Shown here: positions 13,826 to 16,889 of the stretch, in pieces
How positions within the stretch are numbered: position 1 is the first letter of the stretch
Layout of the letters: every line of letters begins with the position of its first letter
IMG/VR virus record: IMGVR_UViG_3300029305_001878
Coordinates: 1-64,000 of that record
Direction: 5' to 3' (one strand)
DNA: 64,000 nucleotides
Source: a virus
Taxonomy: Duplodnaviria; Heunggongvirae; Uroviricota; Caudoviricetes
Position numbers and translations under genes: made by a program
The notes under the pieces: generated by a model
What the model saw: the letters and a program-made list of their open reading frames with translations, nothing else
The model's database searches: none
Told to the model about the DNA's origin: nothing

Positions 13826-15574
13826 ATGTATAATCCTCTGTTGATGATTGATTTTTATAAGGCTACTCACGCAGAACAATATCCAGAAGGAATGACAATG
13901 ATTTATTCCCCTGGCACTCCTAGAATGTCTCGACTGAAAGATGTTAATGAAGTTGTTTATTTTGGCGGTCAGGCTTTCTGTAAGATGTTGATTCAGGCAT
14001 TTGACGAACATTTCTTCAATCGATATGAAAGTGAAGTAGTGCGCGAATATAAACGTGTGCTCGACCATACTCTCGGCGTAGGTGCTTATAGCGTTGATAA
14101 GGTTGTTAATCTTCATAGACTTGGTTATCTGCCGATTGCGTTTTACGCTATCCCCGAGGGCACGAGTACCAAGATTGGTACACCGCAGTCTGTGTTTGTA
14201 AACACCCATCCCGATTTCGCTTGGCTGACTAATACTTTGGAAACTATGTATTCTGCTTATATTTGGCATATTCAAGTTTCCGCAGAAGTTGGTCGTAGAT
14301 ATCGTAAGTATGCTGAATATTGGGTTGAAAAGACCTGTGATGAAGATTATCGTGTAGCACGTCTGCTGAATGATTTCTCTATGCGCGGTCAGCATTGTCC
14401 TGAATCCGCAATCACTTCTTCCGCTGCTTGGCTGCTGTCCTTCCTTGGCACGGCAACTGTCCCCGCAATTATGTGGCTGGAAGAAAATTATAATTGCGAT
14501 ATTGAAACCGAAGAAGTTGGCTACGGCGCAATTTCCACCGAACACTCTGTTATGTGTTCCAATTACGCAGTTGATGGTGATGAAATTACTCATATTAAGA
14601 GACTGCTGACTGAAATTTATCCTAATCATAGTTTCTCTATGGTAAGTGATTCTTATGACTATGAAAATCTGGTCAAGAATATTCTGCCCCAGTGTAAGAC
14701 TGAAATTATGAATCACAATGGTTGGCTTGGTATCCGTGGCGATTCCGGCGACCCTGTTGAGATTGTTGCTGGTTGGGAATATATTAAGATTGCCGACGAA
14801 GATGAATGGGGAGATTTTCTCGATGATAAAGACGGTTATCTTAGCGAATATTTTGATTACCCAAAGGAAAATGTAAAAGCCATTATCTCTTACAAGGATG
14901 CCTATTATAGAGTTGTATGCTCTCCTTATTGGAGCGAAGAGCGTGGCGCTTGGACTGATAGTGATTATGATTTCATTGACCACTATGATGTAAATATGAC
15001 TGGCCCCTTCAATTTTGAAGATATGAAAGTTGAAGAAATGGGTACTGTTTGGTGGCTGTATCACCACTTCGGTGGCACTATGAATAGCCTTGGTTATATT
15101 CAGTTGCCTGCTTATATTAAGGCTGTTTATGGTGATTCTATTACTCCTGACCGACTGAATGAGATTGGCCGCAGATTGCAGGTTAAGGGTTTTGCTATTA
15201 ATAATGTTTCTCTTGGCGTTGGCTCTTTCTCTTTTATGTGTCTTGAAAATAAGGATTTTTATACCAATGAAGTGAGTTATAGCCCTTATACTCGTGATAC
15301 TTTCAGTTATGCTATTAAGGCTACTTATGGTGAAAATAAAGAATTTAAGCCTGTTTTTATTCAGAAAGAACCCAAAGCATTGTCTTGGAAGAAGTCTCCC
15401 AGAGGCTGTATTATTGTTGATAAGAATGGCGAATATACTGATGGTTGGACTTTCTATGAAGCACACAATGATTATGTTGATAATCAGTTACAATTGGTTA
15501 TGAAAAATGGTCATATTATTAGAGATATGAGCCTGGCTGAAATTCGTAGAAATATGTGGGGAGAGAATTTTTAA
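13826..15574 (+). CDS. nadV: Nicotinamide phosphoribosyltransferase (NadV/NAMPT)
   Basis: MYNPLLMIDFYKATH... typical NAMPT N-terminus, ~580 aa. RBS gaaaggaa; no TAG. Confidence 0.8.
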   Translation: MYNPLLMIDFYKATHAEQYPEGMTMIYSPGTPRMSRLKDVNEVVYFGGQAFCKMLIQAFDEHFFNRYESEVVREYKRVLDHTLGVGAYSVDKVVNLHRLGYLPIAFYAIPEGTSTKIGTPQSVFVNTHPDFAWLTNTLETMYSAYIWHIQVSAEVGRRYRKYAEYWVEKTCDEDYRVARLLNDFSMRGQHCPESAITSSAAWLLSFLGTATVPAIMWLEENYNCDIETEEVGYGAISTEHSVMCSNYAVDGDEITHIKRLLTEIYPNHSFSMVSDSYDYENLVKNILPQCKTEIMNHNGWLGIRGDSGDPVEIVAGWEYIKIADEDEWGDFLDDKDGYLSEYFDYPKENVKAIISYKDAYYRVVCSPYWSEERGAWTDSDYDFIDHYDVNMTGPFNFEDMKVEEMGTVWWLYHHFGGTMNSLGYIQLPAYIKAVYGDSITPDRLNEIGRRLQVKGFAINNVSLGVGSFSFMCLENKDFYTNEVSYSPYTRDTFSYAIKATYGENKEFKPVFIQKEPKALSWKKSPRGCIIVDKNGEYTDGWTFYEAHNDYVDNQLQLVMKNGHIIRDMSLAEIRRNMWGENF

Positions 15575-16032
15575 TGGCTCTTTATGTTAAGCAAGGAGAT
15601 TTACTGATGACAGATGTAGATTATATCTGTCATCAAGTAAATTGTCAAGGTAAAATGAACTCTGGTATTGCTAAAAGTATTAGAGAGAAATATCCAAAAA
15701 CATATATCGATTATATGTTATGGTATGAACAAAATGGTAGTAATAAAATATTTAATCATATTTGTGTCACTCCTATATCTAATAAAACAAGCGTTATTCA
15801 TATGGCTTCACAATATGATTATGGATATGATGGTAAAAGATATACTTCTTATGATGCTTTTTGGAACTGTTTAAATGAGATTAAAAATACTATTCCAAAA
15901 GGTAGTAAAGTTGGATTCCCCGGAAATATTGGTTGCTATCGTGGCGGCGCAAACTGGAATGTAATTCTTGAAATGATTAAAGAAGTTTTGGTAGAAGATT
16001 TTGAAGTATATATTTATTTCTTGGAGGATTAA
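15574..16032 (+). CDS. Macro-domain (ADP-ribose-binding/processing) protein
   Basis: YVKQGDLLMTDVDYICHQVNCQGKMNSGIAKSI resembles the macro-domain N-terminal signature. ATG overlaps the nadV stop (TAATG). Confidence 0.55.
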   Translation: MALYVKQGDLLMTDVDYICHQVNCQGKMNSGIAKSIREKYPKTYIDYMLWYEQNGSNKIFNHICVTPISNKTSVIHMASQYDYGYDGKRYTSYDAFWNCLNEIKNTIPKGSKVGFPGNIGCYRGGANWNVILEMIKEVLVEDFEVYIYFLED

Positions 16033-16034
16033 TT

Positions 16035-16889
16035 ATGTATTATACATCTGCATTAAGCCGTTTTAAAGGCAAGAAATATACTATCGACCCTGATAAGGAA
16101 GTAGACTATATTATTAACTGGATTAAAGAACAATTTGCTATGTATGGTGAAAATACAAAAGCAGTAATTGGAATGTCTGGTGGTAAGGATTCTACAATTG
16201 CGGCCGCACTCCTTAAAGAAGCGCTTGGTCCCGATAGAGTGGTCGGTGTAATTATGCCCGAAAATATTATGAAGGATAAGGATTTGGCAAAGGTTATTTG
16301 CGACCATCTAAAAATCAAGACTTCTATTATTAACATCGGAGAAATTACTGAACGATTTTATGATGCTTATTGTAGAGAACTGTATGATAATGACCCCGAC
16401 GCAGATATTAGTATGGTTCTAACTAATACACCTGCGCGCATTCGTATGGCTATGCTCTATGCAGTTGCTTCTTCTTGCCACGGACGAGTAGTTGATACTT
16501 GTAATGCGAGTGAGATTTATGTTGGTTGGTCTACTAAATGGGGCGATGGTGCTGGTGATTTTGCCCTGTTCCACGATTATCCTGTTCGATATGTGAAAAT
16601 GATTGGCTATGAACTGGCTAAGCGAGGAGTCATTCTTGAACATTGGGTAGATAAAATCCCAGATGATGGAATGTGCGGTTATAGCGATGAAGAAAAGTTT
16701 GGTTTTTCTTATGATGAACTAGATGATTATATGATTAACGGTATTACTCCCGATGTTGATAAATTAACAAGAATAAAAAGTATGTATAAGCGAGGGCAGC
16801 ATAAACAGTGCATTCGTCTTAACTGTCCGAGACTTCTTACCGAACACGAGGAGGATAAGGTATGGGTGCCGGAGATCGACCCGTGGTAA
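16035..16889 (+). CDS. nadE: NH3-dependent NAD+ synthetase (NadE family, PP-loop ATP pyrophosphatase)
   Basis: SGGKDST PP-loop and NadE-like length and layout. Confidence 0.75.
   Translation: MYYTSALSRFKGKKYTIDPDKEVDYIINWIKEQFAMYGENTKAVIGMSGGKDSTIAAALLKEALGPDRVVGVIMPENIMKDKDLAKVICDHLKIKTSIINIGEITERFYDAYCRELYDNDPDADISMVLTNTPARIRMAMLYAVASSCHGRVVDTCNASEIYVGWSTKWGDGAGDFALFHDYPVRYVKMIGYELAKRGVILEHWVDKIPDDGMCGYSDEEKFGFSYDELDDYMINGITPDVDKLTRIKSMYKRGQHKQCIRLNCPRLLTEHEEDKVWVPEIDPW

Follow-up and report, generated by a model that had tools for sequence, protein, structure and literature searches.

A three-gene NAD+ operon in a large phage genome: a NadV/Namat-family transferase with an Asp-to-Ala replacement, an Adpp-like macro protein and NadE

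Phage pathways that rebuild NAD+ have been described as NARP1, NARP2 and NARP3. In NARP1, the transferase Namat couples nicotinamide to ADP-ribose (ADPR)-pyrophosphate, and retains activity with phosphoribosyl pyrophosphate (PRPP) and nicotinamide (PMC12774641). About 15% of NARP1 operons also carry a Poa1p-like macro protein, Adpp, which dephosphorylates ADPR-1''-phosphate, the product of the RES-domain NAD+ phosphorylase (aRES), letting NARP1 proceed (Osterman et al., bioRxiv 10.64898/2026.01.28.702374). The combination of Adps, Adpp and Namat, termed NARP1-AP, is known from Vibrio phages Gary and K354. NARP2 is comprised of Nampt and Nmnat (NadV and NatV of Vibrio phage KVP40) and NARP3 of PnuC and NadR, while Preiss-Handler clusters encoding PncA, PncB, NadD and NadE are found in Bacillus phage G (gp275-gp283) and in gut “NAD-jumbo phages” (PMC11662467); such classical clusters in cultured jumbo phages like G show that a phage-encoded deamidated route exists. 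Here we address an operon at positions 13826-16889 of a 64,000-nucleotide stretch (the window) of the phage record IMGVR_UViG_3300029305_001878, which carries genes for a NadV/Namat-family transferase, a macro-domain protein and the NAD+ synthetase NadE. In our estimate the chances are about even that this operon rebuilds NAD+ via the deamidated (nicotinate) branch, finished by the phage NadE.

The operon resembles NARP1-AP most closely. Namat of the SpbetaL1 phage is the best characterised match of its transferase, with the core and the equivalents of R40 and F392 kept, the adjoining macro gene is homologous to Adpp, and relatives have an Adps orthologue just upstream. It differs in Ala replacing Asp215, in the attached NadE, in the nicotinamidase usual among relatives, in an insertion in the clamp helix, in having no Adps in the window, and in a predicted deamido product that would need amidation. 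With NARP2 it shares the phosphoribosyltransferase superfamily and would share a similar PRPP logic if host PRPP is the donor, but NadE is present and the predicted route passes through nicotinic acid mononucleotide (NaMN) and nicotinic acid adenine dinucleotide (NaAD), not nicotinamide mononucleotide (NMN). NARP2 was rejected as a description of the locus on two grounds, no NMNAT in the window and no Asp at the D219 column, and NARP3 was set aside since neither of its genes is present. Likeness to the Preiss-Handler clusters lies in the predicted deamidated route ending in NadE and in the nicotinamidase encoded by relatives. The window transferase, however, combines NAMPT_N and NAPRTase in place of the PncB-type NAPRTase_N/C, NadD and PncA are absent from the window, and in relatives an Adps orthologue and an ADPR-1''-phosphate phosphatase slot accompany the enzyme. 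BLAST detected no similarity between the window transferase and the nicotinate enzymes of phages G and Phosso, which have the domains of PncB.

In the literature on NARP1 and NARP2 (Osterman 2024), NARP1-AP (2026), NARP3, and the structures of Namat and Adps, we found no NadE, nicotinamidase or Asp-to-Ala variant. Phage-encoded NAMPT and sets of Preiss-Handler genes (pncB, nadD, nadE) are listed at the KEGG level in a survey of gut jumbo phages (PMC11662467), with neither the operon nor the residue switch described there.

The operon and its Ala-type transferase

The window is AT-rich (~ 32% GC) and makes up part of the 185.5-kb JGI contig Ga0318466_10001127, the genome of a large gut phage; its genes are nearly all on the + strand. 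The operon and its borders are organized as follows.

13724-13763, + strand: terminator-like hairpin (18-bp stem) with a T-run, at the end of the upstream unit
13765-13793, + strand: promoter-like site TTGATT-N17-(TG)TATAAT, belonging to a set of nine almost identical 29-nt motifs of the window
13826-15574, + strand: NadV/Namat-family pyridine (ADP-)ribosyltransferase, 582 aa (589 aa from the alternative ATG at 13805)
15574-16032, + strand: macro-domain protein, homologue of Adpp and putative ADPR-1''-phosphate phosphatase, 152 aa
16035-16889, + strand: single-domain (NH3-dependent type) NAD+ synthetase NadE, 284 aa, with the PP-loop SGGKDS
16911-16942, + strand: terminator-like hairpin (13-bp stem) closing the operon

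An earlier note on this DNA had reported three contiguous genes between 13826 and 16889, and the three open reading frames (ORFs) do follow one another head to tail on the + strand. The stop of the transferase gene and the start of the macro gene overlap in TAATG, the macro and NadE genes are 2 nt apart, and each of the two has its own Shine-Dalgarno sequence. The trio is a discrete operon, a single transcription unit of translationally packed genes. The start at 13826, given in the same note, is upheld over 13805: an AAGGA Shine-Dalgarno sequence lies 9 nt upstream of it, it is located downstream of the promoter-like -10 element (13788-13793), and homologues start at the corresponding MYNPLL. 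The description of the genes as GC-rich applies to those of the transferase and NadE (39%), and fails for the macro gene (29%), which is below the window average. There is no in-frame TAG in any of the three genes, as had been noted, but this is not a distinctive feature because the whole block 8703-20985, with the NAD and RNA-repair genes, is TAG-free.

According to Pfam, the transferase is comprised of NAPRTase and NAMPT_N domains only. It matches NCBIfam PRK09198 with 358.6 bits (E 5e-107, under the cut-off of 405) and PHROG 448, “nicotinamide phosphoribosyl transferase”, with E 5e-142. Its best solved relatives are 9W5X/9W5W, the SpbetaL1 phage Namat (336 bits), compared with ~ 95-103 bits for mammalian NAMPT and Xanthomonas Nampt. 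The third-best solved match, PDB 9KE8, for which no description was found in the literature, nests among Adps-linked Asp-type sequences in a neighbour-joining (NJ) tree. Since bit scores fail to separate Namat from bacterial NadV, the family assignment rests on residues and gene context. The catalytic core is kept, including equivalents of Asp13, Tyr15, Phe189, Arg192, the His, Arg306, Asp308, and the GD and TRD motifs of Namat; H247, R311, D313, F191 and R194 of the window enzyme are invariant across the family.

The diagnostic change is at the amide-binding Asp (D215 in Namat; D219 in human, rat and mouse NAMPT), which is Ala in the window transferase (A217 in the 589-aa and A210 in the 582-aa numbering). 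The column can be aligned unambiguously, with GTATVP in the window corresponding to GTDTIP in SpbetaL1 Namat, GTDTIPAL in 9KE8 and GTDTVAGI in rat and mouse NAMPT. Ala is present in all 121 sequences of the best metagenomic homologue alignment (57-95% identical, query counted), and in 87 out of 87 sequences from fetched loci (IMG/VR and other contigs, the window included), in which all other catalytic residues are kept. The same Ala was observed in the enzyme of phage phAss-1, which is only 30% identical; the NAD genes of this phage are not discussed in the paper describing it. Asp219 is reported, as Khan et al. are cited in PMC7096376, to define the substrate specificity of NAMPT, and the D215A mutation markedly impairs Namat with nicotinamide (PMC12774641). 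Based on the Asp-to-Ala replacement in the specificity column, together with linkage to NadE and nicotinamidase, we propose the use of nicotinate: the window enzyme is most likely a nicotinate-using derivative of Namat and not an ordinary NAMPT.

Two insertions accompany this change, one of 88 aa at about residues 325-411, and the other of about 15 aa (10-17) in the region of the adenine-clamp helix (SCH). The adenine selectivity clamp of Namat consists of Arg/Lys/Tyr in SCL and the SCH aromatics F392 and Y396. In the transferase family, R43 and F475 are kept as equivalents of Namat R40 and F392, and the Y396 column holds Cys or Pro according to how the sequences are aligned, with the shorter insertion just after it.

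Scanning 185,579 bacterial reference species genomes disclosed the Ala-type enzyme on only six contigs of metagenome-assembled genomes, all in a phage-like context. They are binned as Clostridia, Lachnospiraceae, Acutalibacteraceae and Prevotella and look like binned phage, so that these assignments can be taken only as a weak hint of the hosts.

Gene context of Ala-type transferases

The trio of transferase, macro and NadE genes recurs in many other large phage contigs at 44-60% protein identity, far beyond chance. To compare the surroundings of Ala- and Asp-type enzymes, 80 canonical Adps-Namat loci, fetched and flank-annotated in the same way as the Ala-type loci, were used as a control. 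The control loci have Asp in all 80 cases and Adps upstream in nearly all, while within 8 kb NadE and PncA are both absent (0/80 each), and NMNAT was also detected in none (0/80). In Ala-type loci, NadE is located up to 2.5 kb downstream of the transferase in 78 out of 80, and at 3.6-6 kb in the remaining two; the transferase and NadE genes frequently adjoin directly, only 0-19 nt apart. Among the 77 loci with enough upstream sequence, every one has an Adps-like gene upstream and 75 have PncA. The dominant order is PncA, Adps-like, transferase, an optional slot, and NadE. In phAss-1 the order is nicotinamidase-Prs-transferase-HAD-NadE. Adps-like proteins of Ala-type operons share the short length of Adps (PMC13586617) and their median identity to canonical NARP1 Adps is 40% (175 bits); one of them, from locus L004, gives only 48 bits with the best solved PRPP synthetase.

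This context bears on the annotation of the transferase as NadV (NAMPT) in the earlier note. A true nicotinamide phosphoribosyltransferase, making NMN in a NARP2-like manner for adenylylation by the host, with NadE as an unrelated auxiliary, would agree with the PHROG 448 and JGI names, with the intact catalytic His, Arg and Asp core, and with the PRPP and nicotinamide activity kept by Namat (PMC12774641). We consider it quite improbable because all members of the family have Ala in place of the specificity Asp, a change that as D215A cripples Namat, and because NMNAT, missing from the window, is found nearby in only 7 of 85 Ala-type loci. It would also leave unexplained why NadE and nicotinamidase accompany the Ala-type enzyme in nearly every locus, and the Asp-type enzyme in none of 80. 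The functional label is thus probably wrong, and a nicotinate-using enzyme remains our preferred interpretation.

The slot between transferase and NadE is occupied by a macro gene in 21 out of 80 loci, by a gene for a HAD-like protein with a DxDxT motif in 14, or by nothing; both cassettes are found in canonical NARP1 operons, too. The small HAD-like protein corresponds to PHROG 1238, labelled “phosphoheptose isomerase”, and takes the place of the macro protein in L010 (7561-7980), L045 (11476-11886) and L052 (11476-12231), three of the fetched loci, as well as occurring in ordinary Adps-Namat operons (the L092-L171 set). It may represent a second, non-homologous ADPR-1''-phosphate phosphatase. 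An extended island of NAD and ADP-ribose genes was observed in a megaphage relative (locus L003, 5139-14450, on a 402-kb IMG/VR contig), in the order HD hydrolase, nicotinamidase, Adps-like, YqeY, SIR2, transferase, macro, NadE, NADAR and NMNAT.

In the window phage and in a relative with 74% identity, the order is reduced to RNA ligase, TM2 protein, small ORFs, transferase, macro and NadE. The window trio is a trimmed copy of the larger conserved operon, which includes the Adps-like gene and PncA. In the NJ tree, built without support values, the main Ala clade is monophyletic and sister to the Asp-type Namat clade, and phAss-1 branches apart. Nucleotide search of the region against cultured or deposited phages returned one weak match, MT835544.

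NadE, the macro-domain protein and the proposed route

The third gene is unambiguously identified by its domain matches as NadE, in agreement with the earlier note. It scores 146.9 bits with Pfam NAD_synthase (PF02540) and 143 bits with TIGR00552 nadE, above the cut-off of 63.65, and it contains the synthetase domain alone, without the glutaminase domain.

The 152-aa protein gives only 19.5 bits with Pfam Macro (PF01661), under the cut-off of 22, and E 2e-32 with PHROG 335 “phosphatase”. Its AlphaFold2 model (pLDDT 89.5, pTM 0.87) retrieved exclusively macro domains among the top 20 Foldseek matches, with TM-scores of about 0.7-0.8, the best being of the DarG/BT1257/TARG1/Poa1p class. Judging from the model, the macro fold can be assigned confidently, and the macro domain suggested previously is corroborated by this fold and by homology to Adpp. 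A non-macro fold, named in the earlier note as evidence against its interpretation, was thus not obtained. With TARG1, DarG, Poa1p and BT1257 the protein shares, besides the fold, the His-x-x-Asn and Gly-rich ADP-ribose-binding motifs, and BT1257 of Bacteroides thetaiotaomicron is the closest of them in sequence. In Vibrio phage K354, the gene lying between those of Adps and Namat codes for a protein with 35% identity (E 1e-30) to the window macro protein. Residues common to it and to macro proteins of canonical NARP1 operons are His20, Asn23, Ser30-Gly31, Gln80, Pro116, Gly120, Gly125 and Trp128. It appears on these grounds to be a homologue of Adpp, with a predicted phosphatase activity.

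A different role, independent of NAD+ salvage, would be that of an anti-DarT or anti-ADP-ribosyltransferase enzyme freeing phage DNA, RNA or protein of ADP-ribose. It could be suggested by the best NCBIfam match, the DarG N-terminal macro domain, although its 40.8 bits are far from the cut-off of 250. DarG, together with TARG1, also ranks at the top of the structural matches, nucleic-acid repair genes are neighbours of the operon, and the window phage has no Adps to use ADPR. Invariant Gln80, however, aligns with the catalytic Lys of DarG and TARG1, making a DarG-like DNA de-ADP-ribosylase unlikely; Gln at this position is shared with BT1257 and SCO6735. The same set of residues characterizes the NARP1-operon macros, with which the protein groups, a HAD-like protein can fill the macro slot in relatives, and no DarT-like toxin partner is encoded near the macro gene. 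The DarG-like reading was therefore rejected, and de-ADP-ribosylation in any form is in our view very improbable. Adpp-type activity is the interpretation used below.

In the proposed route, the Ala-type transferase would couple nicotinate, and not nicotinamide, to activated ribose. The nicotinate branch is suggested by the loss of Asp, nicotinamidase upstream and NAD synthetase downstream in relatives, and no adenylyltransferase. In relatives, the donor is probably ADPR-pyrophosphate from the adjacent Adps orthologue, as indicated by this gene and by the phosphatase slot, and NaAD would be produced in one step. In the window phage the donor is most likely host PRPP, because no Adps gene was seen and Namat retains activity with PRPP; the product would be NaMN, from which the universal host NadD would make NaAD. 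Phage NadE would then amidate NaAD to NAD+ with ATP and ammonia, and the Adpp-type macro protein would convert ADPR-1''-phosphate, formed by RES-type NAD+ phosphorylases, to ADPR. As a deamidated route ends in amidation by NadE, it would account for the linkage of this gene and for no need of NMNAT, the absence of which is explained with either donor. In the full operon of relatives, Adps and the Ala-type transferase in effect replace PncB and NadD of the Preiss-Handler clusters. The biological role would most likely be restoration of NAD+ after its depletion by a host defence.

Search of the window by tblastn with proteins of relatives detected no NMNAT, as stated in the earlier note, and no PRPP-synthetase-like protein, nicotinamidase, NADAR or SIR2. 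That note had also proposed a search for NMNAT or an ADPR-pyrophosphate synthetase beyond the window. Within ~ 7 kb upstream on the source contig, there is no called gene with an NAD-related Pfam match, and BLAST with reference proteins found only genes already known from the window. The same two checks were negative within ~ 8 kb downstream, a segment seen only on short contigs of other samples that carry the identical window protein. When a metagenome was scanned with an Adps-like profile, the window contig was not among the 80 best of 334 matches.

These searches are relevant for the possibility that nicotinate and NadE chemistry are kept with ADPR-pyrophosphate as the donor, and that Adps, perhaps also PncA, resides elsewhere in the genome. 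The operon would then be one part of a “deamido-NARP1-AP” split over two loci and producing NaAD from NADase products. Adjacency of the Adps orthologue and the transferase in all 77 informative relatives speaks for this arrangement, and so do their Adps-like proteins, which resemble solved PRPP synthetases far less than they do the Adps of NARP1. R43 and F475 of the clamp are kept, the retained Adpp-like macro protein makes pathway sense only with ADPR consumption, and ~ 107 kb of the source contig is unseen. On the other side are the negative results for an Adps-like gene in the window and its surroundings and in the profile scan, the same local loss in the 74% identical relative, and the usual adjacency of NARP1 genes. 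All things considered, a split system is unlikely, if less so than the other alternatives, and for the window phage we keep host PRPP as the proposed donor.

Several points weigh against the nicotinate route. Replacement by Ala removes one hydrogen bond and is no proof of nicotinate use, in a family known from sequence and context. With 15 aa inserted in its adenine-clamp helix, the transferase does not disclose its donor specificity by sequence. Among solved structures, the NMN synthetase of Francisella ranks second as a match of NadE, whose preference for NaAD or NaMN is likewise not readable. Neither PncA nor the Adps-like gene is present at the locus in the window phage or in the relative with 74% identity; this local loss leaves the macro protein without an obvious consumer of ADPR, and requires host PRPP, PncA and NadD. 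The negative results for Adps and PncA are not conclusive, with ~ 107 kb of the 185.5-kb contig outside the inspected part. Finally, covariation of Ala with the gene context may reflect only one or two ancient events, kept over deep divergence.

The earlier note had interpreted the genes as a counter-defence NAD+ module. The module itself is supported, and its nearest characterised relatives are counter-defence enzymes of NAD+ reconstitution; for the window phage this role is inferred. The operon might instead be a general metabolic booster, a set of auxiliary metabolic genes raising NAD+ for replication and not an answer to NAD+-depleting immunity. In the gut jumbo phage survey such genes are read as an independent NAD+ supply (PMC11662467), the promoter is of a type common to gyrase and DNA polymerase genes, and a PRPP-based route would yield NAD+ with or without a triggered defence. 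Still, the closest characterised relatives are proven counter-defence enzymes, the phosphatase slot makes sense only against RES-type NAD+ phosphorolysis, the operon is placed among RNA-repair genes, and NADAR is added in relatives. A purely metabolic function is accordingly rated as improbable, and the two roles are not mutually exclusive. Taken together, the previous interpretation was right in outline, as an NAD+ module with an ADPR-processing macro domain, and most likely wrong on “NAMPT”, which would make NadE integral to the route and not an extra.

Somewhat more tentatively than for the route itself, we suggest a fourth type of phage NAD+ reconstitution, “deamido-NARP1”. It would consist of nicotinamidase converting nicotinamide to nicotinate, Adps supplying ADPR-pyrophosphate, an Ala-type Namat derivative tuned to nicotinate and making NaAD directly, and NadE for the last step to NAD+, with an interchangeable macro or HAD cassette for the products of RES enzymes. 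The window operon would be its minimal three-gene derivative, operating on host PRPP and NadD.

Neighbourhood of the operon and implications

The promoter-like motif TTGATTTTTwwwAAAAAATATGwTATAAT was observed in nine copies in the window, all on the + strand, compared with 0.02 expected by chance.

6392, 7776, 13765, 16944, 17730, 29146, 38147, 40550 and 52082, + strand: starts of the promoter motif copies, 29 nt each

Copies at 13765 and 16944 sit straight behind hairpin terminators; the second of them (16944-16972) directly follows the hairpin that closes the operon and leads into a metallophosphatase gene. Genes behind the motif include the NAD operon, RNA-repair genes, gyrase B and DNA polymerase III alpha. 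Copies in front of gyrase and DNA polymerase III genes place the trio in the same expression class as replication genes, and its promoter is most likely of the early or middle type common to them. The Rfam scan of the window gave no match, and no tRNA was found in it.

The NAD operon is flanked by an RNA-repair set, comprised of a DRB0094-type RNA ligase (11761-13035), two calcineurin-like phosphoesterases (metallophosphatases) and a Pnkp-type polynucleotide kinase, the latter three encoded within 16999-17727, 17938-18477 and 18796-19509. The set looks like a split bacterial Pnkp. In relatives, genes for Thg1-like, YqeY, NADAR, SIR2, NMNAT and HD proteins are added at the same locus, and such a neighbourhood is in keeping with an island devoted to repair and counter-defence.

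A 518-aa DUF2828/DUF7788 protein (8718-10274), encoded upstream of the RNA-repair genes, appears TROVE/vWA-like by eye. Genes for an ICEA-like nuclease and an N6/N4 DNA methyltransferase are scattered among those of three paralogues of 250-280 aa (5549-6391, 7918-8670 and 10354-11127), which have Cys-rich repeats and whose C-terminus is DUF2726-like. An 816-aa protein (3045-5495) carries the major-vault-protein shoulder domain (PF11978) and recurs in relatives (locus L004). A replicative helicase with an apparent intein was also recognized by eye (among 41145-43313, 43469-44164, 47972-48628, 54825-55649 and 60264-61202), as were several GIY-YIG-like ORFs located between fragments of helicase, DHH/RecJ-like, Pol III alpha and NrdD/NrdG genes, which suggests introns or split genes.

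Many ORFs on the + strand are continuous only if TAG is read as a sense codon, for example 36046-37044 (12 TAGs), 46530-47885 (6), 23020-24324 (5) and 57246-57854 (5). Reading TAG as sense raises the ORF coverage of the window from 78% to 94%. No suppressor tRNA was detected in the window. The pattern suggests stop-codon recoding (code 15-like) restricted to a subset of genes. The RNA ligase ORF ends with TAG (13033-13035), and read-through would add only seven codons up to the TAA at 13056; this small effect fits TAG being still a stop for early genes.

NAD+ depletion is among the commonest antiviral strategies of bacteria, and the described phage pathways NARP1, NARP2 and NARP3 all end in amidated chemistry. 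The Ala-type operon is widespread in large gut phages and appears to route pyridine via nicotinate and NaAD. If this is true, it would represent a new branch in the arms race between phages and their hosts. It would also mean that many “NAMPT” genes in viromes are mislabelled, and would provide a one-residue rule for their annotation and a natural specificity switch for engineering enzymes in the production of NaAD, NaMN and NMN.

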